Origin: Candidatus Omnitrophota bacterium | Lineage (GTDB): Bacteria > Omnitrophota > Gorgyraeia > Gorgyraeales > Gorgyraeaceae | Direction: 5' to 3' | NCBI GenBank assembly: GCA_018902915.1 | Contig: JAHIPS010000082.1 | Location: 1 to 51,172 of the forward strand | Length of the DNA stretch: 51,172 nucleotides | Part shown: positions 404-48,532 of the stretch, in pieces | Numbering within the stretch: position 1 is the stretch's first letter | Layout of the letters: each line of letters opens with the position of its first letter | Translations under genes and position numbers: made by a program | Notes under the pieces: model-generated | The model's input: only the letters and a program-made list of their open reading frames with translations | Told to the model about the DNA's origin: nothing | The model's database searches: none

Positions 404-687
404 GTATCTCTTCAGGACTGGCAGGCCGGAAAAAAGCATCGTAATTTTTTGCGGGTACGGTGTCATTTTGTCCAAGGCGAAGCTTTGGACAAAATGACGA
501 GCAAAAAATTACAATGAGCGAAGGCCGCCTCGCCCCGTTCCAAATTCTAATCGATTATCGATTTACTATTTGTAGCTGATTACGTACAATTCTCATATAT
601 CATTTAACCGATACTTAAGAATTTGGAACGGGGCTCGCTGGGGCGGCCGAGCGTCTTTTTGTAGGCCTGCCATGCCTGAAGAGATAC
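404..687. repeat. Nested composite palindromic element (~284 bp)
   Basis: Paired arms: 404-416/675-687 (GTATCTCTTCAGG), 419-427/664-672, 437-452/501-516, 462-475/485-498 with a GCGAAGC loop, 523-529/642-648 and 532-548/618-634. Confidence 0.9.
532..634. mobile_element. MITE-like element, copy 1 (103 bp, 17-bp TIR GCCCCGTTCCAAATTCT)
   Basis: Perfect 17-bp terminal inverted repeats. A near-identical copy lies at 30631-30732 (7 differences by manual alignment). Confidence 0.85.
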
Positions 688-712
688 GTTGCCTAATGCC
701 TAATGCTTAATC

Positions 713-740
713 TTGACATATAGAATATATAGTTTAAAAT
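713..740 (+). promoter_or_regulatory. sigma70-type promoter, probably giving a (near-)leaderless helicase mRNA
   Basis: TTGACA (713-718), 16 bp spacer, TAAAAT (735-740). ATG at 751 has no Shine-Dalgarno. Confidence 0.55.
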
Positions 741-750
741 ATAGCTATAT

Positions 751-3700
751 ATGCCTAGCCTTGAGAATTTTTATGAAGAGTTAAATACCGAGCAGAAACA
801 AGCTGTGGATGCGCTGGACGGGCCAGTGCTGGTCTTGGCCGGTCCTGGAACAGGAAAAACCCAGCTTCTTTCTGTTCGTGCCGCAAACATAATCCGCCAG
901 GAAAAGGCCCTGCCTGAGAATATCCTCATCCTCACCTACACAAACGCCGCAGCGAAGACAATGAAGGAGCGCCTCGCAAAGATCATTGGCCTGAAAGGCT
1001 ATGACGTCCACATCTCCACCTTTCACAGCTTTGCCAATTCTATAATATTAGATTCAGAGGAGGCGAGTAATTATATCCAGGAACGCATCCAGATCACAGA
1101 AATAGAAAATGTAAAGGCAATAGAATACGTCCTTGATCATACAAAAGGCCTTTCTGAGATAAGGCCGTTCAGGGCGCCTTATTTTTATGTAAGCGAGATA
1201 CAAAAAAGGATAAGCGACTTAAAAAGAGAAGGCATAACCCCGGAAGAGTTTCTAAAACACGTTGAGAGATTAAGACCGGACCGGATCTACATAGAAGAAA
1301 AGCACATCCCCAGGATAAAGGCCCTTTCAATCGTATACGAGCAGTACGAAAAACTTAAGGAAGGCAGGAACAGGGATATATTTGACGAGCGCGGCAGGTA
1401 TGATTATGACGACATGATCATGCTCGCGACAAACGCGTTAAACGGGGAAAAGCTCTTAAAGAAAAAATACGAGGACCAGTTCAGCTACATAATGGTGGAC
1501 GAGTTCCAGGATACAAACGGCGCTCAGCTGAAACTCCTGCTCTCTCTTATGGAAGGCGCGCATTCCAATCTCTGCTGCGTGGGCGATGATGACCAGTCTA
1601 TATACAGGTTTCAGGGCGCGAGCGTCGCTAATTTCAGAGAATTAAAGAAAAAATTCAAAAACCTTAAGACAATTTCGCTTAAAAATAATTACCGCTCGGC
1701 AAAAGAGATAATAGACCTGTCGCAGGATCTCATAAATGAACTTCCTAAAAACGAGAGGACAGGCCAGAAGTCTCTCGTGCCAATCCGGGATTTTAAGAAA
1801 AAATCAATCGAATGCCATGAATTTACCACTGGGGAAGAAGAGATGTGCTTCGTGGTGGACAAGGTAAAAGAGTTTAAGTCTCAGATCTCCTCCTCAAAAG
1901 AATTAAGCCCTGAAGAAAATAAATTCCCGTATAATAACATCGCTATACTGGTGAGAAAAAGGATCCTTATCCCGAGGCTAATTGACGCGTTTCTCAAGGC
2001 AGGTATCCCGTATGCGACGGACGGCAAAGAGGACATAAGGGCCGAGGTGCGCGTGAGACAGATGCTGGATATACTGGAGTTTGCAGATATGGACCCGGAG
2101 AACGTAAAGGATAAGGACAGGCTGCTCTATAATCTTCTTATATCCGATTATTTCCAGATCCCTCACAGGGACACCCTGAATTTTATAAACAGGGTGAATA
2201 AGAAAAAAAGAAATAAGGAAAGCGTGACATTTTTATCAGAGCTTTACAATGATAAGGACCTTACCCCAGCCCTTAAAAAAGCGGGAGACATAATAGAACG
2301 TCTCGCAGATGCCAGGCTAAGGCCGGTCCACGCGGTTTTGATGGATTATATAAAGGAGGCCGGCGTATTTAAATTTATCCTGGAAAAATATGAGAAGGAC
2401 CAGATAGTGAGGATCAGGGAGCTGCGCGCGCTCGCATCTTTTATAAATAAGGTAAAGGAATCTGATCTTTCAGATCCAGGCATAACCTTGAGGGATTTTG
2501 TCGAGGAGATAAAGACGTGCAACGAGCACAATCTTCCTGTAAAGGGAGAGCTGGTTACAATGACGCAGAACGGCGTCAGGATCTTTACGGCGCATGGCTC
2601 AAAGGGCCAGGAGTTTCACAGCGTCCTGATCCCGTTTTGCCTGCAGGACGCGAACTGGCCGATAAAAGCAAGACCTGACATAATCCCTTTGCCGCCGCAC
2701 ATAGTGAGAAGCATGGAAAAGGTGAGTTCCAAAGAAAGGATAAAAGAGCTCCGTCTTTATGACGAGACAAGACTTTTTTACGTGGCTGTAAGCCGGGCAA
2801 AAAGCAATGTTTTATTTACATCCAGCCCTAAGGAAAACGAGATATCGAGTTCATTCATTCATCGATTAGGCATTGAACCGAAGCGGGAGCGGTTCAGCGA
2901 AGAGGATACCCTGATCAAATCCTTAAGCAAGTCCGAAGCCAAGGATCCTTTTATAGGCACTGAGTCGGTGTTGAGGGATATGGTCTCACAGATGAGCCTG
3001 AATCCCACGAGTTTAAATAATTATTTAAGGTGCAGGAAAAAATTTCTCTACGACAATATCCTGATGATTCCTTCTTCAAAAAAGCAGAGCCTCATGTTCG
3101 GGACAGCGGTCCACGACAGCCTGGAACAGGTTTTCAGGCATTACATGAAGGCGAAAGAATTTCCTGATTTTCAGTTTTTCAAGAGCGCATTTGTAGATTC
3201 GTTAAAATTCCAGGGGCCTGAAAAGAACATGGAGCTCCGCTGCATAGAAGAGTTTGAAGGGATGAGAAAATACTTTGATAAAATATCCTCGAATCCCATT
3301 ATGCCCCTGGGACTCGAGAACCGCATGCCAATAAATATAGACGGCATTGTATTTACCGGGAAATACGACAAGATGGAGATGGAGGATGAAAAGGCAGGGG
3401 CCGCAAGGGTCATAGATTATAAAACAGGTGTTTCTAAAAAGCACGCCAGAGGCATATTTGAAGTGAGAAGTTTAGAAGATGATGAATGCGATGATTACCT
3501 GCGCCAGCTTGTCTCTTATAAACTTTTGTACGAGAAGGACAAGACGCGGCAGGATAAGGATTTATTCGTGAGTCATGGCGTGCTCGTGTTCGTGGAGCCG
3601 TCCAAAGAAGAACTGAGAAAATATGGTGTAAAAAAAGGCGAGCCGACCGAGTTTAAGGTCGAGCTCACTGGCGAGATGGTGGACGAACTGGTCGGCCTGA

Positions 3701-3807
3701 TAAAAAATACATGGACAGATATACAGGGGCTTCGTTTTGAAAAGCTGAAAGAACGCGACAGAAATAAATGCGGGTTTTGTGATTTTGACCACATATGTTG
3801 GGGATAG
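751..3807 (+). CDS. UvrD/PcrA-like SF1A DNA helicase fused to a C-terminal PD-(D/E)XK nuclease with an Fe-S staple (AddA/AdnB-like)
   Basis: Q motif LNTEQKQAV, Walker A AGPGTGKT, VDEFQDTN, VGDDDQSIYRFQGA, NYRS, TAHGSKGQEF, RLFYVAVSRAK. Nuclease motifs GKYDKME/VIDYKTG/QLVSY. One Cys in YLRC plus CxxCxxxxxC at the C-terminus. Confidence 0.9.
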   Translation: MPSLENFYEELNTEQKQAVDALDGPVLVLAGPGTGKTQLLSVRAANIIRQEKALPENILILTYTNAAAKTMKERLAKIIGLKGYDVHISTFHSFANSIILDSEEASNYIQERIQITEIENVKAIEYVLDHTKGLSEIRPFRAPYFYVSEIQKRISDLKREGITPEEFLKHVERLRPDRIYIEEKHIPRIKALSIVYEQYEKLKEGRNRDIFDERGRYDYDDMIMLATNALNGEKLLKKKYEDQFSYIMVDEFQDTNGAQLKLLLSLMEGAHSNLCCVGDDDQSIYRFQGASVANFRELKKKFKNLKTISLKNNYRSAKEIIDLSQDLINELPKNERTGQKSLVPIRDFKKKSIECHEFTTGEEEMCFVVDKVKEFKSQISSSKELSPEENKFPYNNIAILVRKRILIPRLIDAFLKAGIPYATDGKEDIRAEVRVRQMLDILEFADMDPENVKDKDRLLYNLLISDYFQIPHRDTLNFINRVNKKKRNKESVTFLSELYNDKDLTPALKKAGDIIERLADARLRPVHAVLMDYIKEAGVFKFILEKYEKDQIVRIRELRALASFINKVKESDLSDPGITLRDFVEEIKTCNEHNLPVKGELVTMTQNGVRIFTAHGSKGQEFHSVLIPFCLQDANWPIKARPDIIPLPPHIVRSMEKVSSKERIKELRLYDETRLFYVAVSRAKSNVLFTSSPKENEISSSFIHRLGIEPKRERFSEEDTLIKSLSKSEAKDPFIGTESVLRDMVSQMSLNPTSLNNYLRCRKKFLYDNILMIPSSKKQSLMFGTAVHDSLEQVFRHYMKAKEFPDFQFFKSAFVDSLKFQGPEKNMELRCIEEFEGMRKYFDKISSNPIMPLGLENRMPINIDGIVFTGKYDKMEMEDEKAGAARVIDYKTGVSKKHARGIFEVRSLEDDECDDYLRQLVSYKLLYEKDKTRQDKDLFVSHGVLVFVEPSKEELRKYGVKKGEPTEFKVELTGEMVDELVGLIKNTWTDIQGLRFEKLKERDRNKCGFCDFDHICWG

Positions 3808-3818
3808 GGGGTTTTATT

Positions 3819-4391
3819 ATGAGAAATATTTTAATCGCTTTAATTATTTTAATGATCCTGCCGGCGTGTAATATCGTCCCGAAATCAGTGCAGTATCAGA
3901 AGGAAGAAGAAGGTACAATAGGCAGCGTGGATGGCATTAATCTTCTGGTTGAAGAGGCACAGGTCATGTTCTCTAATCTCGGTTATGATACTGGAAACAA
4001 GGACGGCAGGATGGGGCAGAAGACGCGCGAGGCAATAAGGGAGTTTCAGGAATCAATAGGGCTTAAGAGCACAGGCTATATAGATAAGCTTACGTGGCGG
4101 GCGATAGAGGATATACGCAGAGACATTGAAAGAAGCGAGATGAAAGAAAAATACATTGTGACCGTCAAAAGCGCTTATAAAGAAGAGATCTCGAGTCCTG
4201 ATTTCAATGTTACTATAAAGGAGATACAGGCTGCCTTGAAGAACGCGGGTTTTGATCCTGGGACTTTAGACGGGAAAATGGGGCCAAGGACGCAGCAGGC
4301 AGCAAAGGAATTCCAGAGGGCAAAGGGCCTCAAGGTTGACGGCAAGGTCGGCCCTAAGACGTGGTCGGAGTTAAAAAAGTATGCTGAGTAG
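3819..4391 (+). CDS. Lipoprotein with two peptidoglycan-binding (PG_binding_1) domains
   Basis: Lipobox-like LPAC. Two repeats: DGRMGQKTREAIREFQ and DGKMGPRTQQAAKEFQ...DGKVGPKTW. Confidence 0.85.
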   Translation: MRNILIALIILMILPACNIVPKSVQYQKEEEGTIGSVDGINLLVEEAQVMFSNLGYDTGNKDGRMGQKTREAIREFQESIGLKSTGYIDKLTWRAIEDIRRDIERSEMKEKYIVTVKSAYKEEISSPDFNVTIKEIQAALKNAGFDPGTLDGKMGPRTQQAAKEFQRAKGLKVDGKVGPKTWSELKKYAE

Positions 4392-4401
4392 ATTTTTCAA
4401 A

Positions 4402-4458
4402 CCCTTATCTGACAATCTTGACTGACAATCTTGACACGTACGTTTTGTCAAATAAGGG
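4402..4458. repeat. Hairpin with an internal 13-bp tandem duplication (TGACAATCTTGAC x2); TTGACAA-type palindrome family
   Basis: CCCTTAT (4402-4408) pairs with ATAAGGG (4452-4458). Direct repeats at 4410-4422 and 4423-4435. Confidence 0.7.
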
Positions 4459-4459
4459 A

Positions 4460-4489
4460 TTGACAAAATGGATCCGAGTGGTATAAAAT
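4460..4489 (+). promoter_or_regulatory. sigma70-type promoter
   Basis: TTGACA 4460-4465, then TATAAA/TAAAAT at 16-18 bp spacing. RBS-like GAGGGAGG lies upstream of ATG 4517. Confidence 0.55.
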
Positions 4490-4516
4490 GTTATTCAAGA
4501 GGGAGGGATTCGCGAA

Positions 4517-4729
4517 ATGGGTAAATACATAACTGTGCTTGGTGGTATAATAAGTATTCTGATAGGAATATGGGGCATAACTACCTGGTGGTGGAGCTTT
4601 GCAGAGCTTTTAAAAGGGGCTGTGCCACCTGTTCTTGTTTTAGGCGGGCTTGCAGCGCTTTTTGCTGGCATAGGCGAGATAAAGGATTCTGGCAAGGCAA
4701 AGAAAGATGAGGGAAAAGAGAAAAGTTAA
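4517..4729 (+). CDS. Small two-TM membrane protein
   Basis: 70 aa, two hydrophobic helices, charged tail, RBS-like sequence upstream. Confidence 0.75.
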   Translation: MGKYITVLGGIISILIGIWGITTWWWSFAELLKGAVPPVLVLGGLAALFAGIGEIKDSGKAKKDEGKEKS

Positions 4730-4745
4730 AAATATAGATATATTA

Positions 4746-4785
4746 ATGAAGGTAGGCCCTATAAAATAAGAGGGTCTATTTTCAT
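4746..4785 (+). terminator. Intergenic stem-loop (possible terminator or processing hairpin)
   Basis: ATGAAGGTAGGCCCT pairs with AGGGTCTATTTTCAT using G-U pairs. The U-tract is weak. Confidence 0.4.
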
Positions 4786-4803
4786 TTAAGGAGGGTAATT
4801 TTT

Positions 4804-5631
4804 ATGAATTATATAAAGACAGGTTTACTCTTAGCTGCGCTTACCATGCTCTTTGTGTGGATAGGCGGATATTTTGGCGGCCAGAGCGGGGCCACGTTCG
4901 CGTTGATATTTGCGCTGATGATGAATTTCGGGGCATACTGGTTTAGCGACAGGATCGTGCTTTCAATGTATAGCGCCAAGGAAGTCGAGCCGCAGGAAGT
5001 ACCTGAACTTTACAATATAGTCCGCGAATTGACATCTCACGCAAAGCTTCCAATGCCAAAGATATATATAGCGCCGCAAAGTTGTCCGAATGCCTTTGCA
5101 ACTGGCCGCAATCCAAAGCATTCAGCAGTGTGCGTGACGCAGGGCATACTGAATCTTTTGAACCGGGAAGAGCTAAAAGGCGTGATAGCGCATGAACTTT
5201 CCCACATTAAAAACAGGGACACATTGATAATGACTGTTGCGGCAACTATTGCAGGCGCGATTACCATGCTCAGGTGGCTTGCTATATTTGGCGGCAGGGG
5301 CGGAAGAAATAGAGATTCTAATGCCCTTATGTATCTAGTCATGTTTATACTAGCGCCCATAGCAGCGATGCTTATACAGCTGGCCATATCACGCTCGAGA
5401 GAGTATGCTGCTGATAAAAGGGCTGCGCATGTTGCAGGCACACCTGCGGGACTGGCTTCAGCACTTTTGAAATTGGAAAAAGGAGTAAAGACATATCCAA
5501 TGAAGGCAAACGAGACCACAGCGCATTTATTTATTGTCAATCCATTGCGCGGACAGGGACTGGCAGCGCTCTTCAGCACGCACCCGCCAATCCAGGAAAG
5601 AGTAAAGCGTCTACAAACCATGAACCCTTAA
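4804..5631 (+). CDS. htpX: Zinc metalloprotease HtpX (M48)
   Basis: [24 protein letters not shown] (HExxH), [17 protein letters not shown]; multiple TMs. Confidence 0.95.
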
Positions 5632-5652
5632 TTTACAAAGAAGGAGGCAGGC

Positions 5653-6660
5653 ATGGCAGAGTTCAATGCGAAATACGGTCACGACATAAAGGCGATAAAC
5701 GAAAAGGTGAAAGAGGCAAGCCTTTTTGTGCAACAGCTTAATAACGAGCTGTCAAAGGTTATCGTGGGGCAGAAATATATGATGGACAGGCTTTTGGTAG
5801 CGCTTCTTGCAAATGGCCATATTTTAATAGAGGGGGTGCCAGGGCTTGCAAAGACGCTTGCTGTCAAGACATTGTCGAGCTGCATACAGACAAAATTCCA
5901 GAGGATACAGTTTACGCCTGATCTATTGCCGGCAGATCTGATCGGCACGCTTGTCTATAATCCAAAGGACGGCAAGTTTACCACAAAAAAAGGCCCAGTT
6001 TTCGCGAATCTCATACTCGCGGATGAAATAAATAGGGCCCCTGCAAAGGTGCAGTCAGCGCTTTTAGAGGCAATGCAGGAGCGCCAGGTCACAATAGGAG
6101 ATTCTACCTTTAAATTGGACGAGCCGTTTCTGGTGCTTGCCACACAGAATCCAATAGAGCAGGAAGGAACGTACCCTCTTCCAGAGGCGCAGGTTGACCG
6201 ATTCATGCTAAAGATAAAAATCAGCTATCCTGACAAAAAAGAAGAAAAAGAAATCATGGAACGCATGGCAGGCCATGAACCGCAAGAGGTGAAACCCGTA
6301 GTTTCTTCTGATGACATTGCTAAGGCAAGGGAGATAGTGAGCGAGATCTATATAGATGAAAAGGTAAAAGACTATATAGTGGATCTGGTTTGCGCGACAC
6401 GCAATCCCGAGGAATATAATCTCGATATAAAAAATCTTGTAGCTTATGGCGCGTCTCCAAGGGCATCTATATATCTGAATATAGCAAGCAAGGCGCACGC
6501 CTTTATCCGAGGCAGAGGATTTGTCACGCCAGAAGACGTGAAGACAGTAGGCATGGATATTTTGCGGCATCGCATCATAATTACGTATGAAGCAGAGGCA
6601 GAAGAGATGACCAGCGAGGATATTGTAAAACGAGTATTTGATCAAATCGAGGTCCCGTGA
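5653..6660 (+). CDS. moxR: MoxR family AAA+ ATPase
   Basis: EGVPGLAKT, RIQFTPDLLPAD, ADEINRAPAKVQSALLEAMQE, ATQNPIEQEGTYPLPEAQVDRF. Confidence 0.95.
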   Translation: MAEFNAKYGHDIKAINEKVKEASLFVQQLNNELSKVIVGQKYMMDRLLVALLANGHILIEGVPGLAKTLAVKTLSSCIQTKFQRIQFTPDLLPADLIGTLVYNPKDGKFTTKKGPVFANLILADEINRAPAKVQSALLEAMQERQVTIGDSTFKLDEPFLVLATQNPIEQEGTYPLPEAQVDRFMLKIKISYPDKKEEKEIMERMAGHEPQEVKPVVSSDDIAKAREIVSEIYIDEKVKDYIVDLVCATRNPEEYNLDIKNLVAYGASPRASIYLNIASKAHAFIRGRGFVTPEDVKTVGMDILRHRIIITYEAEAEEMTSEDIVKRVFDQIEVP

Positions 6661-7535
6661 TCCCCAAGGAAATCCTGAAAAAGGTCCGCCAGATCGAGAT
6701 CCGGACCGGCAAGCTCGTCAATGACGTGTTTGCGGGAAGCTACGAGTCTGTATTCAAAGGCCGCGGCATGGAGTTTCACGAGGTGCGCGAGTATGTGCCG
6801 GGGGACGACATCCGTTCCATTGACTGGAATGTCACGGCTCGCACAGGAAACCCGTACGTAAAAAAGTTTGTCGAAGAAAGGGAATTGACGGTTTTGCTGA
6901 TGGCTGACATGAGCGGTTCAGGTTATTTTGGCACAAAAGAAAAGATGAAAAAGGAAATAATGGCAGAGATAGGCGCGCTCCTTGCGTTTAGCGCGATAAA
7001 AAACAATGATAAAGTGGGCCTGATTCTTTTTACAGATCAGGTGGAAAAATTTATCGCGCCAAAAAAAGGGAGACCCCACGTCCTCAGGGTCATAAGGGAG
7101 CTTTTATATTATAAACCGCAGGGCAAAAAGACCAGCATTAATGCCGCGCTCGAATATTTAGGCAAGGTCTTGAAGAAACGCGCAGTCGTATTTCTTATCT
7201 CGGATTTTATGGATTCTAATTACGAAAGACTTTTGCGGATCCTGAACAAGCGCCACGATATTATAGGCATATCTATTTCCGACCCGAGGGAAACGCACCT
7301 GCCTGACGTGGGACTCATAGAGTTTGAAGACGCTGAGACCGGGGAGATGATCTGCGTGGATACCAGCGATGTTCTTTTAAAAAACGAGATCATAAAAAGA
7401 AAAAGGTCTTTTATGGAAAACCGCAACAGGATTTTTAAATCAATGGCCCTGGATTCAATAGATCTGTCAACCAGGGAATCTTATATAAAGCCCCTTATGC
7501 TTTTCTTCAGGGCGCGCGCCAAAAGATTTAGGTAA
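6657..7535 (+). CDS. DUF58 family protein (VWA-like MoxR partner)
   Basis: GRGMEFHEVREYVPGDDIRSIDWNVTAR, KKFVEERELTV; GTG start overlaps the moxR stop. Confidence 0.92.
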   Translation: MIPKEILKKVRQIEIRTGKLVNDVFAGSYESVFKGRGMEFHEVREYVPGDDIRSIDWNVTARTGNPYVKKFVEERELTVLLMADMSGSGYFGTKEKMKKEIMAEIGALLAFSAIKNNDKVGLILFTDQVEKFIAPKKGRPHVLRVIRELLYYKPQGKKTSINAALEYLGKVLKKRAVVFLISDFMDSNYERLLRILNKRHDIIGISISDPRETHLPDVGLIEFEDAETGEMICVDTSDVLLKNEIIKRKRSFMENRNRIFKSMALDSIDLSTRESYIKPLMLFFRARAKRFR

Positions 7536-7545
7536 AAATATAATC

Positions 7546-8031
7546 ATGGACGATATAAGGCCGTTAAAGGATTTAGTAGAGATCAGGGGAGGGCTTTCAT
7601 TTTTGGCCCTGATCTTGTTGATTTTGCTATTGGCCGCCGCCATAGCTTTGGTCATCTATTTCAGAAAAAGAAAAAAGGCCGTCGAAGAGCCTGTCTTGCC
7701 GCCTCGGCCGCCAGAGGAGATCGCAATGGAGGCCCTGAGGGCGCTTATAGAGATGCGATTGGTCGAGAAAGGCATGATAAAGGAATATTACGTGCGTCTT
7801 TCAGATATTATCCGCACTTATATACAAGGGAGATTCAGGATCTTTGCGCTGGATATGACCACGTGGGAGCTCTATCAGGAGATGCGTCTTAAAAAGCTCG
7901 ACAGGCCGCGCGTCGCTCAGATGCGGGATTTTCTGGAAGATTGCGACCTTGTAAAATTTGCAAAGTATATTCCTGTAAAAAAGGAAATCGAGGAAGCATA
8001 TACCATGGCAGAAGAGATCGTACAGGCCTAA
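7546..8031 (+). CDS. Membrane-anchored Bat-operon protein (DUF4381-like)
   Basis: DIRPLK start, one TM, DLVKFAKY motif; conserved position between DUF58 and batA. Confidence 0.75.
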   Translation: MDDIRPLKDLVEIRGGLSFLALILLILLLAAAIALVIYFRKRKKAVEEPVLPPRPPEEIAMEALRALIEMRLVEKGMIKEYYVRLSDIIRTYIQGRFRIFALDMTTWELYQEMRLKKLDRPRVAQMRDFLEDCDLVKFAKYIPVKKEIEEAYTMAEEIVQA

Positions 8032-8066
8032 GTTGACAATTTTGACATTGTCAAAATTGTCAACTT
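8030..8066. repeat. Perfect 37-bp palindrome AAGTTGACAATTTTGACA-T-TGTCAAAATTGTCAACTT
   Basis: 18-bp arms around a 1-nt centre; fills most of the intergenic gap before batA. Confidence 0.9.
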
Positions 8067-8077
8067 GAGGGGTGGGT

Positions 8078-9067
8078 ATGAGGTTTGCGAGTCCGTTGTT
8101 TTTGATATTGCTGGGGATTATCCCGCTAGTTATCTGGGATTTCCTCAGGCGCGCTAAGACCAGCGAGGCGAGTATTTTATTTTCAGATGTATCTATTGTA
8201 AAGGGTATCCGGCTTGGATTCAAGGTCAGGTATAGACACGTACCGATGATCCTGAAAATGGTCGCCATATTTATTTTTATTCTGGCTATGGCAAGGCCCC
8301 AGGCAGGACAGAAAGAAGAAGAGATTATAACCGAGGGCATTGACATCATGCTTACCCTTGATACCTCGAGCAGCATGAAGGCAGAGGATTTCAAGCCCCA
8401 AAATAGATTAGGCGCGGCAAAAGAGGTAATAGAGGAGTTTATAAAATCGCGGCACAATGACAGGATCGGCCTCGTGGTATTTTCGCGCCAAAGCTTTACG
8501 CAGTGCCCTCTCACGCTTGATTATGATGTGCTGTTGGATCTCCTGGAAAAGATAGAGATAGGCATGATAGAAGACGGCACAGCCATAGGGACAGCTATTG
8601 CAAATTCTGTAAACAGGCTGAGGGATTCTAAGGCTAAAAGCAAGATCGTAATACTTTTAACAGACGGGATAAATAACGCAGGGAAGATAGACCCGCAGAC
8701 AGCGGCAAAGACTGCAACAGCGCTCGGTATAAAGATATACACGATAGGCGCTGGCAAGCCCGGGGCTGCGCTTTATCCAGTAGAGGATCCTATATTCGGG
8801 AAAAGATACGTAAAGATGGATACAGAGATAGACGAGGGCCTGTTAGAAGAGATCGCAGAAGAGACAGGAGGCCTGTATTTCAGGGCTAAAGACGAACAAG
8901 GCCTAAAAGAAATCTATGAAACCATTGGGAAATTGGAAAAGACAGAAATCGAGACCAAGGAATACGCGAATTACACTGAGCTGGCCGATGGTTTTATTTT
9001 ACCAGGCCTCATATTATTTTTAATGGGCATAACATTGGGCAACACCTTGTTTAGAAAGATCCCGTGA
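8078..9067 (+). CDS. batA: BatA VWA-domain protein
   Basis: N-terminal BatA TM region, MARPQ, MIDAS DTSSSM, DGTAIGTA, LLTDG. Confidence 0.9.
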   Translation: MRFASPLFLILLGIIPLVIWDFLRRAKTSEASILFSDVSIVKGIRLGFKVRYRHVPMILKMVAIFIFILAMARPQAGQKEEEIITEGIDIMLTLDTSSSMKAEDFKPQNRLGAAKEVIEEFIKSRHNDRIGLVVFSRQSFTQCPLTLDYDVLLDLLEKIEIGMIEDGTAIGTAIANSVNRLRDSKAKSKIVILLTDGINNAGKIDPQTAAKTATALGIKIYTIGAGKPGAALYPVEDPIFGKRYVKMDTEIDEGLLEEIAEETGGLYFRAKDEQGLKEIYETIGKLEKTEIETKEYANYTELADGFILPGLILFLMGITLGNTLFRKIP

Positions 9068-9075
9068 GGTAGCAC

Positions 9076-10077
9076 ATGCATTGGGGCGCGCCAATATATT
9101 TAAATTTCCTTCTACTTATTCCCGCGTTAATAATATTTTTTATCATTGTCTCTATCAGGAAAAACAGGGCCATCGGGGTATTTGGAAACAAGGCCCTGAT
9201 GGAGAAACTTTCTCTATCAAAGAGCGCGGCAAAAGAAAAGACAAAGAGGATTTTAATCATAATAGGCGCCATTTTCCTGATCCTGGCGCTTGCGAGGCCA
9301 CAGATAGGCACGAGACTTGCCATGACAAAACGCAGCGGAGTGGATGTCCTGATAGCAATAGATACTTCGACGAGCATGATGGCCCAGGATATAAAACCAA
9401 ATCGTTTGGAAAAGGCAAAGCTGGAGGTGGCCTCGCTTATAGATAAATTAAAAGGGGACAGGGTCGGCATCCTGACATTCGCGGGCAATAGTTTTGTCCA
9501 GTGCCCCCTCACGCTTGATTACAACGCGGCCAAGATGTTTTTAAGCATCGTAGAGACAGGCATGATGCCCAAGCCAGGAACAGCCATAGGCGACGCAATA
9601 GAGAGGGCCGCGAAATCCTTTGTTAAAAAACAGAGAAAACACAAGGTCCTGGTCCTTTTGACAGACGGCGAAGACCACGAGCAGGATCCTGTAAAGGCTG
9701 CAAAAGAGGCAAAGAAAGAGGGTATAAGGATCTATACAATAGGCATTGGCAGTAAACATGGCGAGCCCATACCTATTATGGATGAATCAGGCAATGTCTC
9801 GGGGTATAAAAAGGATTCTAGCGGCGAGGTGGTAATGTCAAGACTCGATGATGAGACGCTTCAGAGGATAGCCTTTATTACAGACGGGAAATATTATAAT
9901 GCCACGCCAGGCGAATTTGAGCTGGACAGTATCTATGACGAGATACAGGGGATGGAGAAAAAAGAACTCTCGAGCAGGTTATTTATGCAGTACGAGGAGA
10001 GGTTCCAGTATTTTCTCGGCATAGCCCTGGCGCTATTGTGTATTGAACTTGTAATCGGAGACAGGAAGAGAACATGA
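9076..10077 (+). CDS. batB: BatB VWA-domain protein
   Basis: LALARPQ, DTSTSM, CPLTLDY, LLTDGEDH; follows batA. Confidence 0.9.
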   Translation: MHWGAPIYLNFLLLIPALIIFFIIVSIRKNRAIGVFGNKALMEKLSLSKSAAKEKTKRILIIIGAIFLILALARPQIGTRLAMTKRSGVDVLIAIDTSTSMMAQDIKPNRLEKAKLEVASLIDKLKGDRVGILTFAGNSFVQCPLTLDYNAAKMFLSIVETGMMPKPGTAIGDAIERAAKSFVKKQRKHKVLVLLTDGEDHEQDPVKAAKEAKKEGIRIYTIGIGSKHGEPIPIMDESGNVSGYKKDSSGEVVMSRLDDETLQRIAFITDGKYYNATPGEFELDSIYDEIQGMEKKELSSRLFMQYEERFQYFLGIALALLCIELVIGDRKRT

Positions 10078-10895
10078 GACTTACGATTGTTCACTGTTCA
10101 AGGCTAAGCCTTGAACAGGGAAATGTTCAAGGCTTAGCCTTGAACAGGAGACTGGCCCGGGCACTTGCAATTCTATTGGTTTGTTTTTTTACCATAGGCT
10201 GGATATGGAATTCTGTTGCGACAAAGGATAAAGAGGCGAGGAAGCTGTATGAGGAGGGAAATCTCGACGATGCATTGGCAAAATGGCGCGACGCGCAGAT
10301 CGACGAGCCTGATAAGAAGGAGCTGCATTATAATATAGGCAATGCATTGTATGAGAAAAGCGAGTATGAGGACGCGTTTAGCGAATACCAGAAATTAATT
10401 GATTCAAAAGATGATGAACTTCGGGCAAAAACATATTATAATATTGGAAACACGCATTACAGGATGGGGAAACTGCCTGAGGCAATAGAGGATTATGAAA
10501 AAGGCCTTGAGATAACGCCTGATGACGAGGACGCGAAGTACAATATAGAGTTTATCAAGAAATTATTAGAAGAGCAGGAAAAGCAGCAATCAACGAGTAA
10601 AGAAGAGCAGGAAGAAAAGAAAGAAGAGGAAGAACAGGAACAGCAGGCGCAGCAGGAGCAACAAGATAAATCTAGCGGAGAGCAAAGACAGGAAGAAAAA
10701 CAGGAAGAATCTGGAAAAGAGGAAAGAGAAGAAAGGCAAGAGGCAAAGAAAGATAAGACAAGCGACGAAAAGGAGATGTCAGAAGAAGACGCTGTTCGCC
10801 TGCTCGACGCTTTAAAGGATGACGAAAAAGAGCTGCAAAAAGAACTAAGGATGCAGCCTATCGAGGGTAGGTATAGAGTAGAAAAAGACTGGTAG
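10074..10895 (+). CDS. batC: BatC-like TPR protein with an E/Q-rich linker
   Basis: TPR motifs (HYNIGNALY, YYNIGNTHY), DAKYNIE, Q/E-rich tract, terminal EKDW. Confidence 0.85.
   Translation: MRLTIVHCSRLSLEQGNVQGLALNRRLARALAILLVCFFTIGWIWNSVATKDKEARKLYEEGNLDDALAKWRDAQIDEPDKKELHYNIGNALYEKSEYEDAFSEYQKLIDSKDDELRAKTYYNIGNTHYRMGKLPEAIEDYEKGLEITPDDEDAKYNIEFIKKLLEEQEKQQSTSKEEQEEKKEEEEQEQQAQQEQQDKSSGEQRQEEKQEESGKEEREERQEAKKDKTSDEKEMSEEDAVRLLDALKDDEKELQKELRMQPIEGRYRVEKDW
10094..10147. repeat. Tandem pair of TGTTCAAGGCTWAGCCTTGAACA hairpins, in-frame in the batC 5' end
   Basis: Units at 10095-10117 and 10124-10146. Homologous pair at 47145-47196. Confidence 0.9.
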
Positions 10896-10898
10896 GAT

Positions 10899-13631: not shown

Positions 13632-13710
13632 TTTCTGTATCTCTATGAAACAATTCAATCCGCTAATAACCAACCAAAATATTGACAGACTGGAATCCCA
13701 GGAGGTGAAG

Positions 13711-30422: not shown

Positions 30423-30597
30423 TCTTCCGGCAGGCTGGGGTCATTCGGCACTGGAATGATTTTGCCGTGCGCTACGGTTTACGACTCGCTTTTACTGTGG
30501 GGCTATCGCTGGCCAAACGTTCAAAGCTCGCCGTAATCCCTTGCGCACATCTGCCAAAATCTTCCTAATGTGCCTCAGACCCCAGCCTGCCGGAAGA
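30423..30597. repeat. ~175-bp long imperfect hairpin with 20-bp terminal inverted repeat
   Basis: TCTTCCGGCAGGCTGGGGTC pairs with GACCCCAGCCTGCCGGAAGA. Inner stems GATTTTG/CAAAATC, GTGCGC/GCGCAC, TACGG/CCGTA, GCTTT/AAAGC. Confidence 0.85.
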
Positions 30598-30630
30598 CCC
30601 AACACGTTTCTTATTTGACAAATCCGACGC

Positions 30631-30732
30631 GCCCCGTTCCAAATTCTAATCGATAATCGATTTATCGTTTGTAGCTGATTGCGTACAACTCTCATATATC
30701 ATTTACCGATACTTAAGAATTTGGAACGGGGC
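30631..30732. mobile_element. MITE-like element, copy 2 (102 bp)
   Basis: Same 17-bp TIR and near-identical interior as 532-634. Confidence 0.85.
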
Positions 30733-32732: not shown

Positions 32733-32769
32733 TATTTGACAAAACGTGCAATGCTCATTTTGTCAAATA
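32733..32769. repeat. TATTTGACAAAA-N13-TTTTGTCAAATA inverted repeat
   Basis: 12-bp perfect arms, related to the palindromes at 4402-4458 and 8030-8066. Confidence 0.75.
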
Positions 32770-34498: not shown

Positions 34499-34568
34499 TG
34501 TCATTGCGAGGCCCGAAGGGCCGAAGCAATCTCAAAAAAGAGATTGCTTCGCTTCGCTCGCAATGACA
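34499..34568. repeat. REP/RPE-like cloverleaf TGTCATTGCGAG...CTCGCAATGACA
   Basis: 12-bp outer arms; inner hairpins GGCCC-GAA-GGGCC and CGAAGCAATCTC/GAGATTGCTTCG. Confidence 0.9.
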
Positions 34569-42902: not shown

Positions 42903-44081
42903 ATGGATTTCGACTCAATGTTACAGAAGGAACTGGGCGAGCTGAAAAGCAAAGGGCTTTTCAGGGAGATGAAAGAGATCAGCGGAATGCAGGGTCCTTT
43001 AGTAGTGATTGATAATAGAGAAGTAATCCTTCTTTCCTCTAATAATTATTTAGGGCTGGCCTCTCATCCTGAAGTGATCAAGGCGCAGATAGAAGCTGCA
43101 AAAGAATTTGGCGCAGGCGCGTCTGCCTCCCGTCTTATTTCAGGTAATATGATTTTGCATGAAAGATTAGAGAAAAAAATAGCTGATTTTAAGGGTACCG
43201 AGGCCGCGATTATTTTTACCACAGGATACATGGCGAATATCGGGACCATAAGCGCGCTTATGGGAGAAAAGGATCTTGTGATCTGTGATAAATTAAACCA
43301 TGCCAGTATTATAGATGGTGTACGTCTGAGCGGCGCGGCATTGAGGACATATCCTCACAAGAATGTCGAAAGGTTAGAGGATATTTTAAAAAAAGAGATT
43401 TCGTATAAAAAGAAACTCATTGTCACCGACGGTGTTTTCAGTATGGATGGCGACGTAGCGCCTTTGTCTGAGCTCGTAAGGATTGCGGAAACCTACGATG
43501 CTATTTTGATGCTGGACGACGCGCACGCAACAGGCGTTATTGGAAAAAACGGAAAGGGCACGTGTGAGCATTTTGGAATAAAAGAGGGTGTTCATGTGCA
43601 GATGGGGACATTCAGCAAGGCACTGGGAAATCTGGGAGGATTCGTAGCCGGCTCAAAGGTCTTGATCGATTACATTCGCAACAAGGCCAGGTCTTTTATA
43701 TATTCAACTGCCCTGCCGCCTGCAATAGTCGGTGGCTGTATAAAGGCTATCGAGATAATAGAAAAAGATAATAGCTTAAGGGAGAAACTCTGGTCTAATG
43801 TCGCAAGATTCCGCGACGCGCTATTAAAATTAGATTTTAATATTATGGAGACAGAGTCGCAGATAATCCCGATACGCACGCGAGATGCCTCTTTGACCAT
43901 GAAGTCAGCTGAATTTTTACTGAAAAATGGAATATTTGCGCCGGGCATAAGACCGCCAACAGTGCCAAAGGCAAAATGCAGGATCCGCGCATCACTGATG
44001 GCCACGCATACCGATGAGCATATTGATAAAGCAGTAGAGGTATTTAAGAGGTTAAAAAGTGAACCCCATTCCAAATTTTAA
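42903..44081 (+). CDS. bioF: 8-amino-7-oxononanoate synthase
   Basis: SSNNYLGL, DKLNHASIIDG, DGVFSMDGD, DDAHATG, GTFSKALG, IRPPTVP. Confidence 0.95.
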   Translation: MDFDSMLQKELGELKSKGLFREMKEISGMQGPLVVIDNREVILLSSNNYLGLASHPEVIKAQIEAAKEFGAGASASRLISGNMILHERLEKKIADFKGTEAAIIFTTGYMANIGTISALMGEKDLVICDKLNHASIIDGVRLSGAALRTYPHKNVERLEDILKKEISYKKKLIVTDGVFSMDGDVAPLSELVRIAETYDAILMLDDAHATGVIGKNGKGTCEHFGIKEGVHVQMGTFSKALGNLGGFVAGSKVLIDYIRNKARSFIYSTALPPAIVGGCIKAIEIIEKDNSLREKLWSNVARFRDALLKLDFNIMETESQIIPIRTRDASLTMKSAEFLLKNGIFAPGIRPPTVPKAKCRIRASLMATHTDEHIDKAVEVFKRLKSEPHSKF

Positions 44082-44167
44082 AGGATTCTTATATATTTGG
44101 AAGGATTGATAATGAAAAAGAATCGTAGTAATATTATGCGTTACTATCCAAAAATTTGGAACGGGGC
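44063..44167. mobile_element. MITE-like element, variant 3 (105 bp), spanning the bioF/bioD junction
   Basis: ACCCCATTCCAAATTTT pairs with AAAATTTGGAACGGGGC (15/17). Same ends and nearly the same length as 532-634, but a different interior. Confidence 0.75.
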
Positions 44168-46061: not shown

Positions 46062-46071
46062 ACTGACCAGT

Positions 46072-47157
46072 ATGAATGATATTCTTGCCTTAGGGGCGCA
46101 GTCTAAAAGCAGCTTTTGTTTTGTTAAATCCGGAGGCTTTCATATTTCGGATTACAGCGGAGACCTGGGCGACATACATAATCTCAGGAATTTTGAGAGA
46201 GATATAAAAAAGATGCAAAAGAAACTCAAAGTCACGCCGGGTATTATCGCCTGCGATTTGCACCCTGAATATATTTCAAGTAAGTTAGCAGCAGAGTGGC
46301 TCAAGGTCCGAGGCTCGAGGCTCAAGGCAATCCAGCACCATAAAGCGCATGTGGCAAGTTGTATATTTGACAATGACGTCGAAGGTAAAGTAATAGGTAT
46401 AGCATTTGACGGCACAGGGTATGGCCTGGACGGGAATATCTGGGGAGGCGAGTTTTTTGTAGGCACTCTTAAAGGGCTGAGGAGAGTCGCGTATTTAAAA
46501 TATATTCCTATGCCTGGGGGAGAGACAGCTGTTCGCGAGCCATGGCGCATGGCGCTGAGCTATCTCTATAATATATATGGAAAGAGTTTTAATTTTGCCA
46601 GGATGGATAAGCAGAAGGCCAGACTTCTTACCCAGATGATAGATAAGGGCATAAATTCGCCTTTGACATCAAGCATGGGCAGGCTTTTTGACGCGGTTTC
46701 AGCGCTTACAGGGATTTGTCATGTAGCAAAATACGAAGGACAGGCAGCAATTGAGTTAGAAAGAGCTATCAGCTATCAGCCATCAGCTTTCAGCTTAAAT
46801 AATGGATATAATTTTAGCTATTTTAACGATAAAGGCTTAGTTATAGTAGATTGGGCGCCGGTTATTAAAGGCATAGTTAAGGATTTACAAGCCAAAAAGA
46901 CCAGGACAGAGATTTCAGTAAAGTTTCACAACGCGGTTTGTTATATGATAAGAGACGTGTGCAGGTTATTGAGAAAAAAATATAAAATAGACAAGGTCTG
47001 TATGAGCGGAGGCGTGTTTCAAAATAAGTTTCTTGCGACTCACGCAAAACCTCTTTTGGAAAAAGAAGATTTTAAAGTATATTTACACAAAAACCTGCCA
47101 GCCCACGACGGTAATATTGCATTGGGTCAGGCAATTTTAGCATCTGTCCAAGGCTAA
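46072..47157 (+). CDS. hypF: Carbamoyltransferase HypF, Kae1-like domain only
   Basis: ACDLHPEY, IQHHKAH, AFDGTGYGLDGNIWGGE, TSSMGRLFD, SGGVFQN, DGNIALGQ. Only 361 aa, lacking acylphosphatase, Zn-finger and YrdC domains. Confidence 0.85.
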   Translation: MNDILALGAQSKSSFCFVKSGGFHISDYSGDLGDIHNLRNFERDIKKMQKKLKVTPGIIACDLHPEYISSKLAAEWLKVRGSRLKAIQHHKAHVASCIFDNDVEGKVIGIAFDGTGYGLDGNIWGGEFFVGTLKGLRRVAYLKYIPMPGGETAVREPWRMALSYLYNIYGKSFNFARMDKQKARLLTQMIDKGINSPLTSSMGRLFDAVSALTGICHVAKYEGQAAIELERAISYQPSAFSLNNGYNFSYFNDKGLVIVDWAPVIKGIVKDLQAKKTRTEISVKFHNAVCYMIRDVCRLLRKKYKIDKVCMSGGVFQNKFLATHAKPLLEKEDFKVYLHKNLPAHDGNIALGQAILASVQG

Positions 47158-47197
47158 GCCTTGGACAAAGCTTTGTCCAAGGCTTAGCCTTGGACAG
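47144..47197. repeat. Perfect 54-bp palindrome made of two TGTCCAAGGCTWAGCCTTGGACA hairpins
   Basis: Units at 47145-47167 and 47174-47196; contains the hypF TAA (47155-47157). Confidence 0.92.
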
Positions 47198-47210
47198 GAG
47201 AAGCAGTGAT

Positions 47211-47417
47211 ATGTGCTTAGCAATACCTATGAAGATCGTAAAGATAGAAGGCGACAGGGCAGTGGTGTCTGCCGGCAGGGTCGAGCGCAGGGTAGCTATT
47301 AATTTTTTGAAGAACCCTATGGTGGGGGATTACGTGATGATACACGCTGGCTTTGCCATTGAAAAGCTCGATACTAAAAAAGCAGAAGAAACACTTCGCA
47401 TGCTGGAAGAGATCTGA
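47211..47417 (+). CDS. hypC: Hydrogenase maturation chaperone HypC
   Basis: MCLAIPMKI start, VGDYVMIHAGFAI. Confidence 0.95.
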   Translation: MCLAIPMKIVKIEGDRAVVSAGRVERRVAINFLKNPMVGDYVMIHAGFAIEKLDTKKAEETLRMLEEI

Positions 47418-48532
47418 TGAAATATATCGACGAATTCAGAGACAATAAAATAGCGAAAAATATCTCAAGGGCAATTTTTGAAAAGGCCGGGACATCAGGA
47501 CCTGTAAATATAATGGAGGTGTGCGGCACGCATACAATGTCTATCTGTAATTTTGGTATTCGCGACATGCTGCCTGAGAATATAAATCTTATCTCAGGGC
47601 CTGGATGCCCTGTCTGCGTTACGCCAAAAGCATACATTGACAGGGCAGTGGCGCTTGCCGGGATCCAGGATACTGTCGTGACGACATTTGGGGATATGAT
47701 GAAGGTGCCTGGTTCGCGTTCCAGCCTGACGCAGGAAAGGACAAAGGGCGCATCGGTAAAGGTTGTTTATTCTACGCTGGATGCAGTGGATATTGCTGAA
47801 AAAAACCCGGATAAAAAAGTGATCTTTCTCGGCATAGGCTTTGAGACCACATCGCCCACTGTGGCTGCTAGCCTGGCATACGCAAAAAAGAAAAGGCTAA
47901 AAAACTTTTTTGTATACTCTGGGCACAAGGTAATACTTCCGGCTATGAAGGCGTTGATGGAAGACCGCGACGCAAAGATAGACGCGTTTTTATGTCCCGC
48001 GCATGTAAGCACTATTATAGGTATGACGCCTTATAACATTATTGCCACAAAATACAAGACGCCGTGCGTGATAACAGGATTTGAGCCACTGGATATCCTG
48101 CAGGGCATTTTAATGATCATAGAGCAGATCACATCTAAAAGATCAGAGGTTGAAAATCAGTATAAAAGGATCGCTACAAGGTCCGGAAATAAAAAGGCCC
48201 TTGATCTGCTGGATGATGTTTTTGAGATAGAGGATTCTGAATGGCGCAGCATCGGTATTATCCCTAAAAGCGGCATGAGATTGAAAAGAAAGTATTCAGT
48301 ATTCGATGTTGAGAAAAATTTTGATCTACCTGCGATAAAAACCAGGCCTGATACAGGATGCATGTGCGGGAGCGTGTTGAAAGGCATAAAGACGCCGTTT
48401 GATTGCCCACTCTTTAACAAAAAATGCACGCCTGAACATCCTGTGGGGCCATGCATGGTCTCCAGCGAGGGTACATGCGCTGCGTATTATAGGTACCCCG
48501 TACCACAAGGGTACGGGGCAGGCAGAAGATGA
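47417..48532 (+). CDS. hypD: Hydrogenase maturation protein HypD
   Basis: MEVCGTHT, GPGCPVC, GFETT, CTPEHPVGPCMVSSEGTCAAYY. Confidence 0.97.
   Translation: MKYIDEFRDNKIAKNISRAIFEKAGTSGPVNIMEVCGTHTMSICNFGIRDMLPENINLISGPGCPVCVTPKAYIDRAVALAGIQDTVVTTFGDMMKVPGSRSSLTQERTKGASVKVVYSTLDAVDIAEKNPDKKVIFLGIGFETTSPTVAASLAYAKKKRLKNFFVYSGHKVILPAMKALMEDRDAKIDAFLCPAHVSTIIGMTPYNIIATKYKTPCVITGFEPLDILQGILMIIEQITSKRSEVENQYKRIATRSGNKKALDLLDDVFEIEDSEWRSIGIIPKSGMRLKRKYSVFDVEKNFDLPAIKTRPDTGCMCGSVLKGIKTPFDCPLFNKKCTPEHPVGPCMVSSEGTCAAYYRYPVPQGYGAGRR
48495..48519. repeat. Minimal RCCCCGT...ACGGGGY hairpin in-frame at the hypD 3' end
   Basis: ACCCCGTACC-acaag-GGTACGGGGC. Confidence 0.7.

Follow-up and report, generated by a model that had tools for sequence, protein, structure and literature searches.

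Hairpins with CCCC ends in uncultured Omnitrophota: an apparent MITE-like family that may be moved in trans by an IS1380-like transposase

The window analysed here is a stretch of 51,172 nucleotides from Candidatus Omnitrophota, which constitutes the entire contig C62 (JAHIPS010000082.1) of a draft genome (GCA_018902915.1), designated G000 below. It contains five palindromic elements with CCCC ends, and we propose that these hairpins belong to a family of uncultured Omnitrophota that resembles miniature inverted-repeat transposable elements (MITEs) and would be moved in trans, with a 4-bp staggered cut, probably by an IS1380-like DDE transposase; taken as a whole, this proposal has in our judgement an even chance of being correct. 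The elements have no open reading frame (ORF) of their own, occur in multiple copies and are polymorphic between close genomes, from which it follows that they move and need to be mobilised in trans. An earlier reading of the letters of the window (the sequence-only reading) had likewise described a non-autonomous mobile system acted on in trans, and this part of it stands. As far as our searches show, the family is an undescribed MITE-like one with unusual target behaviour. The literature searched on GIY-YIG, IS1380/MITE and Omnitrophota mobile DNA holds no description of it (the supplementary taxon lists of PMC11893778, which lay outside the search, may name Omnitrophota), and the text of one Omnitrophota preprint on a complete genome contains neither 'MITE' nor 'palindrom'.

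G000 comprises 1.80 Mb in 128 contigs, with 43.7% GC and 86% completeness. It was compared in particular with G001, from the same genus, and with G012, from another genus of the same family (97% complete, 30 contigs, about 33 family copies), and the survey sample consisted of 400 Omnitrophota genomes. Inverted pairs of the form RCCCCRT-N10-120-AYGGGGY number 44 in G000, against about 3.3 expected from half-site counts and a mean of 2.85 (maximum 7) in 20 block-permuted genomes; the sequence-only reading had suggested such a genome-wide scan, and its outcome agrees with the claim of a family. Half-sites, defined by the 14-mer CCCCGTTCCAAATT with up to two mismatches allowed, occur 70 times in G000 and form 33 pairs within 400 bp, or 32 if the limit is set at 150 bp. 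A full copy measures about 100 bp, has perfect inverted ends of 16–17 nt, (G)CCCCGTTCCAAATTCT, and holds no gene. In an alignment of 49 unique 100-bp copies, collected from G000, G012, an Omnitrophota single-cell genome record and metagenome contigs, the outer 16 nt are almost invariant and the interior columns are 50–90% conserved. The description of the elements as having conserved ends and variable interiors thus holds for the ends, whereas the interior of the main 100-bp form is homologous across genomes and not free to vary.

Several size classes can be distinguished in G000. The class of about 100 bp numbers some 20 copies, with the interior in both orientations, and five copies of 38–39 bp correspond to the long form without its interior; further odd-sized copies measure 31–57 bp. 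The deletion derivatives, ranging from 23 to 57 bp, retain little beyond the two ends and yet have multiplied. A second subfamily, of 101–103 bp and with a different interior, comprises element 3 of the window and a copy at C48:10816, in keeping with the earlier remark that the third element has the same ends and another interior. Looser hairpins sharing only CCCC(G/A)T ends also exist in the genome. With regard to distribution, an exact 13-mer searched on both strands of the 400 genomes was found 54 times in G000, 43 times in G012, seven times in G390 and three times in G416, which belongs to another family; the remaining genomes have 0–2 matches, the level of the backwards control. G001 shows no hairpin pattern and a single 22-nt end match. 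Abundance in G000 and G012 only indicates that the family is patchy and has expanded recently in two lineages. More 100-bp copies are present in the Omnitrophota single-cell genome record and in metagenome contigs.

All five elements listed by the sequence-only reading are present in the window (Table 1), although the ends that it gave include one flanking base on each side, which we removed to define the hairpin proper. The terminal motif that it considered common to all five unites elements 1–3 in a tight family, while elements 4 and 5 share only CCCCGT ends, or the first 6–9 nt, with the main family and lack the family 14-mer at up to two mismatches. The seven differences that it had counted between elements 1 and 2 were recovered by alignment (92% identity), and, as it had noted, no transposase or RAYT (REP-associated tyrosine transposase; REP, repetitive extragenic palindrome) gene was found in the window, where 10 large ORFs were scanned.

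Table 1. Positions of the five elements and of their associated target features in the window
Feature	Position	Strand	Description
Element 1	533-633		101 bp, main family; 16-17-nt perfect inverted ends
Target duplication of element 1, left copy	529-532		CTCG
Target duplication of element 1, right copy	634-637		CTCG
Host palindrome around element 1	404-687		outer arms 404-436 and 655-687
Element 4	12646-12711	+	62-bp hairpin (12646-12707), CCCCGTCCGAAGT arms, plus 4 bp
Left half of REP-like palindrome	30608-30631		cttatTTGACAAATCCGACGCG; abuts element 2
Element 2	30632-30731		100 bp, main family; flanks CGCG / CGAG, 3/4 match
Element 3	44064-44166	+	103 bp, second subfamily; sole paralog C48:10816
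Element 5	48496-48522	+	23-bp hairpin (48496-48518), CCCCGTACC-ACAAG-GGTACGGGG, plus CAGG

Judging by the comparison with empty sites, which are orthologous for elements 3, 4 and 5 and paralogous for element 1, these four elements are true insertions. The bioF/bioD junction that harbours element 3 is empty in G001, where the flanks are about 91% identical, and the 107 extra bp of G000 correspond to the 103 bp of the element plus 4 bp. Element 4 lengthens BatD in frame by 22 codons (66 bp) close to its C-terminus, and the insert is absent from the batD genes of G001, G012, G002 and G006; it is a singleton, neither G000 nor 37 genomes of the family having yielded a second copy. Element 5 adds nine codons (27 bp, in frame) to the C-terminal tail of HypD, past the conserved YYRY and just before the hypE start, and is absent at hypD of G001, G010, G006 and G002. 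A 30-mer identical to it lies at another site in G006 (G006:C11), a degenerate copy is present at C61:13897, and four 32-bp hairpins with the same CCCCGTACC arms constitute a small subfamily with it. These two in-frame inserts bear out the earlier proposal that insertion into coding sequence is tolerated.

Element 1 occupies the loop between the arms of a GC hairpin (GGCCGCC at about 523–529 and GGCGGCC at about 642–648), and its host repeat unit occurs without insert on C82 and C128 of G000, the paralogous empty site on C82 reading ...GGCCGCCTCGTTGGGGCGGCC... In G001, the junction of element 1 is spanned by at least 11 split alignments with a 5-bp overlap, which indicates, at the level of alignments, empty copies of the same host repeat. 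Element 2 is identical to copies at C27:16487 and C25:28963, and its flanks are mismatched because the right half of the REP-like palindrome that it abuts is missing; the G001 alignment ends in repeats at the end of the upstream gene, so that no orthologous comparison is available at this locus. Contigs from other studies bridge element 3 (runs X2, X5 and X7) and element 5 (X2 and X5) with 0–19 differences. Among the joints listed from contigs of four other runs, which as contigs drop rare variants, none skips element 3 or 5 exactly, and a joint 30655>30712, one side of which is 20 nt, probably stems from short copies elsewhere; the comparison of runs carries no information on activity.

Could the hairpins be immobile and selected as structural signals, namely terminators, RNA processing sites or regulatory hairpins? 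As single-stranded DNA, all five have folds much more stable than those of shuffled sequences, with z-scores from -3.7 to -8.3 (-21.6 kcal/mol and z -6.6 for element 1, z -8.3 for element 2 and z -4.4 for element 4), several copies lie between genes or before tRNAs, and the outer REP arms, by reading, have G-T pairs on one strand only. The long elements form a 17-bp closing stem around a branched interior and not one long hairpin. However, presence or absence differs, with clean junctions, between genomes that are about 90% identical in the flanks, and the hairpins have target duplications, occur in both orientations and have copies inside coding frames. No T-run follows them, and the Rfam search suggested by the sequence-only reading gave no match at gathering threshold in the window; nine related loci, comprising family copies and slot loci of G000 and GIY-YIG loci of G012, gave only hairpin matches below threshold. 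We therefore regard a purely structural role as very improbable, and the empty sites already contradict immobility.

With regard to target duplications, the flanks of 32 G000 copies were compared, with the right flank shifted by 1–8 bases as a control. An exact 4-bp direct repeat flanks 15 of the 32, whereas the successive shifts gave 0, 0, 0, 3, 0, 0, 0 and 0 matches, and no duplications of 5 or 6 bp were seen among these copies; the statement of the sequence-only reading that there is no consistent target-site duplication has consequently to be abandoned. The duplicated sequences vary (CGTG, CACG, CTCG, CAAG, TGAA, CCCG), and those that are independent are CTCG, CAAG, TGAA and CCCG, together with the CGTG at a tRNA-Pro gene. 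Among 22 elements fetched from G012, three have a 4-bp duplication, one a 5-bp and one a 3-bp duplication.

This result bears directly on a second alternative, according to which the hairpins are repeats of the REP/REPIN type (REPINs being REP doublets forming hairpins), spread as single-stranded hairpins by a RAYT, a Y1 transposase of the HUH class. HUH transposition of single strands, as in IS200 and RAYT systems, makes no target duplication, and an exact 4-bp duplication of variable sequence therefore argues against such a mechanism, which the 'hairpin system' of the sequence-only reading implies. There are three Y1_Tnp genes in G000 and six in G012, G000 is filled with REP-like palindromes in mosaics, and element 5 and two relatives have a common asymmetric CAGGCA tail and no duplication, all of which a RAYT would accommodate. 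On the other hand, two of the three G000 RAYT genes have other repeats on their flanks (TGTTCAAGGCTTAGCCTTGAACA at C85 and the TTGACAAA type at C48), no CCCC hairpin stands beside any of the three, Y1 genes are equally present in genomes nearly devoid of copies, such as G002 and G220, and the family ends, unlike REPs, are not themselves palindromic. Spread by a RAYT is, in our view, improbable.

Two sets of repeats accompany these Y1 genes. A second palindrome family, TGTYCAAGGCTWAGCCTTGRACA, occurs singly or in back-to-back pairs (window 467–491, 10094–10147 and 47144–47197); its hairpins stand on both sides of the Y1/RAYT-like gene of G000:C85 and thus look like the REPs of that gene. The motif TTTGAAAGAAAATCGACCCTCCCTTGTCT, which may be a common promoter or operator, precedes all three Y1/RAYT-like genes (G000 C48:4700–4800, C85:4330–4400 and C19:10560–10620), and one CCCC element of G012 (L169) is inserted in this motif with a 3-bp TGA duplication.

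With regard to target choice, the insertions lie mostly in the loop or dyad centre of pre-existing palindromes, namely a REP-like family, a terminator-like GC hairpin and other repeats. Ten G000 copies, located by eye, lie precisely at the midpoint of one REP-like palindrome. Where it is occupied, the latter reads cttatTTGACAAATCGTACGTG, element, CGTGTCGGATTTGTCAAataag, or ...TACGTG, element, CGTGTCGG..., and unoccupied copies of it read ...TACGTGTCGG... or ...GTACGTGTCGG... In G012, one copy occupies a GGCTGC hairpin loop, and a copy in another Omnitrophota record lies inside a 25-bp outer inverted repeat.

The palindromes of the host genome are themselves diverse. Those of the TTGACAA..TTGTCAA kind, of about 30 bp, number 98 genome-wide (in the window at 8033–8063 and 32736–32766, and in part at about 4402–4422) and fall into at least three subtypes, CCCC elements being found only in the subtype with an ACGTGT centre; they also flank the Y1/RAYT-like gene G000:C48:4804–5733. 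At 30423–30597, the window contains a repeat module that measures about 175 bp and has perfect inverted arms of 20 nt (TCTTCCGGCAGGCTGGGGTC / GACCCCAGCCTGCCGGAAGA), with copies on C115, C124, C112, C27, C63, C34 and C12, and in G001. Positions 34499–34573 of the window reach a summed contig depth of 1,000–12,000 in four unrelated runs, against about 10–30 around them, and match the widespread 'gtcattgcgag..gaagcaatc' repeat type, which elsewhere in G000 hosts the 32-bp CCCCGTACC hairpins.

Insertion has altered genes in several ways. Element 3 supplies the present stop codon of bioF (..SEPHSKF-stop) and offers a Shine-Dalgarno-like GGAAGGA-N7-ATG in frame with bioD. The paralog at C48:10816, with a perfect TGAA duplication, splits the ATGAA start of an oppC-like permease gene and also carries an in-frame ATG, so that both copies of the second subfamily sit on start codons; the short start peptide of this subfamily is the only peptide borne by an element. 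Coding copies survive only where the element plus 4 bp makes a multiple of three, as in batD and hypD, or where a new ribosome-binding site and start codon are supplied, as for bioD and the oppC-like gene. Two tRNA-Pro genes start 5 nt inside an element (C17:7072 and C48:1658). An orphan GGGGCGTG kept in the left flank indicates that the insertion split the tRNA-Pro gene after base 8–9, and the terminal ACGGGG of the element together with the duplicated CGTG rebuilds the tRNA 5' end; no hairpin stands in front of the tRNA-Pro gene of G001. Three G012 elements overlap tRNA 5' ends by 3–4 nt (two tRNA-Ala and one tRNA-Met). The tRNA targets begin with (C)GGGG, and the insertions survive because the element end mimics the tRNA 5' end.

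In G001 (C23:6650–7400, L434), a tyrosine-integrase gene stands directly upstream of the same tRNA-Pro gene, where G000 has a GIY-YIG gene and a hairpin, which makes this tRNA-Pro gene a repeated landing site. The window also holds, at 13645–17373, a ribonucleotide reductase gene whose intein includes a homing endonuclease domain of the LAGLIDADG type (Pfam Intein_splicing and LAGLIDADG_3).

What enzyme, then, moves the hairpins? It would be encoded outside the element, bind the conserved ends and make a 4-bp staggered cut, and the most likely candidate would be a DDE transposase of the IS1380 (piggyBac-related) kind. For the enzyme taken by itself, we consider a DDE transposase about as probable as all other possibilities together, the remainder falling in equal parts to a GIY-YIG nuclease and to something else. 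An IS1380-like enzyme is favoured by the presence in Omnitrophota of IS1380 copies with CCC(C) ends, one of which has a 4-bp duplication, in conjunction with the known traits of this family. Transposases of the IS1380 type score above cut-off in 20 of the 400 Omnitrophota genomes. The clearest full copy (L209) has the ends CCCGCATTTCTCATC (CCCGC) and a TTAG duplication, another copy ends in CCCCAAATCCTA, and the ends of L216 are CCCCAAATCC.

A number of points weigh against this proposal, and they concern both the enzyme and the duplications. Members of the IS1380 family have CC ends and duplicate 4–5 bp of target, and the likeness of the Omnitrophota copies to the hairpins extends only to the first 3–4 end bases and to duplication length; none of the IS1380 copies seen had CCCCGTTCC ends. 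The IS1380 model PF13701 gave no match above cut-off in G000, G012, G390, G416, G002 or G220, and G012 was equally devoid of DDE_Tnp_1, IS1380 and rve matches (the piggyBac model was also blank in control genomes and is therefore uninformative). In the drafts of G000 and G012, with end pairs up to 4 kb apart, no transposase-bearing element with family ends was found, and no long element appeared among the matches listed, which cover at least 118 genome and at least 119 metagenome stretches holding the end motif. As for the duplications, 17 of the 32 G000 copies have no perfect one, and about 12–13 of the 15 that were counted are CGTG or CACG, with about six of each, all but one (the CGTG at tRNA-Pro, C48:1620) in a single REP family; clustered in this way, they may not be independent events and may include co-spread with the REP. 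Several copies (C115:7368, C25:28963 and window 30632) pair the left flank of one host repeat with the right flank of another, a pattern that suggests either recombination among copies or chimeric assembly; the three copies in the slot between GTCCGAACTT and TCAATTCGCAC have no duplication, and the extra 4 bp of elements 3, 4 and 5 fail to match the opposite flank.

Individual partner candidates were discarded as well, two of them adding to the points just given. An insertion sequence (IS) of the IS4-like type on C60 has ends (TGTCCAAATTA) that share TCCAAATT with the family and start differently, and an IS21-like element on C39 has unrelated ends; the same applies to a partial DDE gene on C124, and CCCC hairpins flank none of these three. 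The few wide pairs of end motifs enclosed ordinary genes and were chance matches with three mismatches. Comparison of G000 DNA with itself revealed no IS in three or more copies, only pairwise duplicates of 80–95% that resemble a strain mixture. Several contig pairs of G000 (C26 with C92 and with C5, C50 with C4, and others) are 80–93% identical over 0.5–4.8 kb, which suggests that the bin includes a second related strain or contamination, the reported contamination being 3.6%.

The sequence-only reading had advised looking for a transposase, HUH or GIY-YIG gene between the same ends. No transposase with matching ends was found, as described above; GIY-YIG genes, however, do stand between ACCC(C)-type repeats, and they form the basis of the third alternative. 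The hairpins would then be gene-less members of class-wide mini-elements whose sole gene encodes a stand-alone GIY-YIG nuclease of 80 residues, UPF0213-like and possibly of the Ssn type. The nuclease would recognise the ACCC(C)...(G)GGGT hairpin in its single-stranded form and cut single-stranded loops, which would explain the hairpin-loop targets, and spread would proceed via host repair. We judge this reading, a serious competitor of the IS1380 proposal, possible though unlikely. G012 contains three units of 266–286 bp in which a GIY-YIG ORF lies within 20–24-nt inverted repeats starting with ACCCC. One of them, with 20-nt repeats that start with ACCCCC, resides in an insert of about 425 bp at the hypD/hypE junction, the same place as element 5 in G000. 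One GIY-YIG protein query found a match in 100 of 300 genomes of the class, with 5–7 copies in some genomes and stop codons in some of the copies, and in all 30 loci that we examined the ORF is bounded by inverted repeats of 13–28 nt, over a span of 264–327 bp. The proteins match Pfam GIY-YIG, the UPF0213 structures 1zg2 and 1ywl and, weakly, NCBIfam. Most of these units occupy the slot between GTCCGAAyTT and TyAATTCGCAC, between two long hairpins, and the same slot also holds main-family copies (on C63, C75 and C78 of G000, and six of 22 in G012). A second small GIY-YIG gene (C48:1325–1582) lies 37 bp upstream of the family hairpin fused to tRNA-Pro. Its homologues of at least 80% identity are confined, among the 400 genomes, to G012 and to one 5-kb contig of G246, which also holds two family elements, and G001 has neither this gene upstream of its tRNA-Pro nor the inserts. 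In G012 and on the G246 contig, family copies stand 95–330 bp upstream of GIY-YIG genes.

The objections to this alternative concern chemistry, distribution and sequence. To our knowledge, GIY-YIG enzymes are hydrolytic nucleases, and we know of no strand-transfer activity among them. Exact 4-bp duplications at unrelated targets are not expected of homing and are poorly explained by a hydrolytic nuclease, for which reason we rank the GIY-YIG reading second. Small GIY-YIG genes, present in 176 of the 400 genomes, are too widespread for their presence alone to track the family, and the proximity of genes and hairpins is confounded by the clustering of both at tRNA genes. Past the initial ACCCC, the repeats that bound the GIY-YIG genes diverge from the family ends. 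Further, the elements depart from the published SRM motif HGTCWY..hairpin..RNCYNB, as given in the parts of PMC11893778 covered here. A regular expression for this motif has 16 matches in G000, against 5–6 in simulated genomes, with none in the window, and seven of these matches share the start of the canonical NTS motif (TGTCATTCCCG...); the family ends (CGTTCC), by reading, lack the GTCWY start, the coordinates of the SRM matches having been compared with the copies of the window only.

A closely related form of this idea, to which we assign a slightly smaller probability, regards the hairpins as riders of GIY-YIG-only hairpin units of 265–330 bp with ACCC(C)... ends that are widespread in Omnitrophota and would represent an undescribed type of mobile element; the nuclease would cut single-stranded hairpin loops, so that both kinds would insert in palindrome loops. 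Were it true, a transposon-like system would be run by a GIY-YIG enzyme, not by a DDE, HUH, serine or tyrosine enzyme, and the missing mobility mechanism of the Ssn/NTS-type repeats would be supplied.

Units of this size are seen at G012:C16:50003–50983 (L352/L357), at L373 and L375 and at 27 further loci (L385–L413), with the start codon in or beside the left repeat. A three-hairpin unit bounded by AAGTGAGGAC and GTGCTCATT occurs in G000 at C63:2560–2850, C72:2920–3150, C75:27400–27650 and C78:9780–10070. Its middle arm is always ACCC...GGGT, whether a CCCCGTTCC element, a 75-bp ACCCTTGACATTTGC hairpin (C72) or, outside G000, a GIY-YIG unit; none of the copies found in G000 has an empty middle, and the unit has no Rfam match. 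The contig G246:C26 (5.2 kb; L154 and L415) comes from a genome of another family, and its DNA is 85–88% identical to the module of GIY-YIG gene, hairpin and tRNA-Pro on G000:C48. The ends of this contig overlap within the GIY-YIG gene, and it may be mis-binned, circular or horizontally transferred.

Returning to the MITE-like family itself, its significance lies in several features. Omnitrophota are known almost only from drafts, and repeats of this sort break assemblies. The 38–39-bp copies, essentially two ends and a loop, have multiplied and show to what size a mobile unit can shrink and still work. One repeat family has colonised another in a nested manner, and genes have been rewired through the stop and start at bioF/bioD, the start of the permease, the peptide segments of BatD and HypD, and tRNA insertions with a mimicked 5' end.

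Bacterial MITEs such as the Correia elements of Neisseria are gene-less, about 100 bp long, and have long inverted ends and a TA duplication. The hairpins resemble them in size, in the lack of a gene, in their long perfect inverted ends, in their dozens of copies, and in a short duplication and effects on neighbouring genes. In general terms, the family has the terminal inverted repeats, the fixed-length duplication, the small gene-less multi-copy form and the empty sites of a MITE, but an autonomous partner with the same ends was not found in G000, in G012 or in the at least 118 plus at least 119 stretches mentioned above. It differs from Correia-type MITEs in that its duplication is of 4 bp and variable, not TA, that no parental IS carrying its ends came to light, that it is strongly biased to palindrome loops, and that derivatives of 23–39 bp have multiplied.

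Rickettsia palindromic elements are palindromic repeats that lie in frame inside protein genes and are translated. The in-frame hairpins of batD (+22 codons) and hypD (+9 codons) resemble them in this in-frame behaviour; the phylum is different, most copies of the present family are intergenic, and the coding copies share only the first 6–9 nt. With REPs, bacterial interspersed mosaic elements (BIMEs) and REPINs, the hairpins have in common the nested mosaics of palindromes in intergenic DNA, in a genome whose RAYT genes have their own REPs. Unlike REPs and REPINs, they flank no RAYT gene, have ends that are not self-complementary, duplicate 4 bp and are guests inside REPs. IS1397 and ISKpn1, complete insertion sequences that belong to the IS3 family and end in TG..CA, insert into REP loops with a 3–4-bp duplication; the preference for the loop of a REP-like palindrome and the 3–4-bp duplication are thus shared, whereas the guest is here gene-less and has CCCC..GGGG ends.

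As for the IS1380 family, which has been used as an outgroup of piggyBac (PMC10813416, in the parts covered here), it is present in the phylum, and the likeness of its Omnitrophota copies to the hairpins goes no further than CC or CCC(C) ends and a 4-bp duplication; no such transposase scores above cut-off in G000, G012, G390, G416, G002 or G220. Finally, Chenal et al. (2025, PMC11893778) described Ssn GIY-YIG enzymes as site-specific single-stranded DNA nucleases, the genes of which are flanked by hairpin repeats cognate to them, of which hundreds of copies exist, and noted an IS-like layout; the parts of that paper covered here show cleavage and an effect on transformation, not transposition, and describe no empty sites or duplications. 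The Omnitrophota units are similar to these NTS/SRM-Ssn systems, as presented there, in having small single-domain GIY-YIG genes in hairpin-forming inverted repeats with many gene-less copies, and G012 even contains a canonical NTS-flanked gene 95 bp from a family copy. They differ in that the GIY-YIG gene lies here inside one long hairpin and there between two hairpins, and the link between hairpin-bounded GIY-YIG genes and mobile hairpins makes it testable whether the Ssn nuclease-repeat pairs reported in 2025 are mobile, and how their repeats spread.

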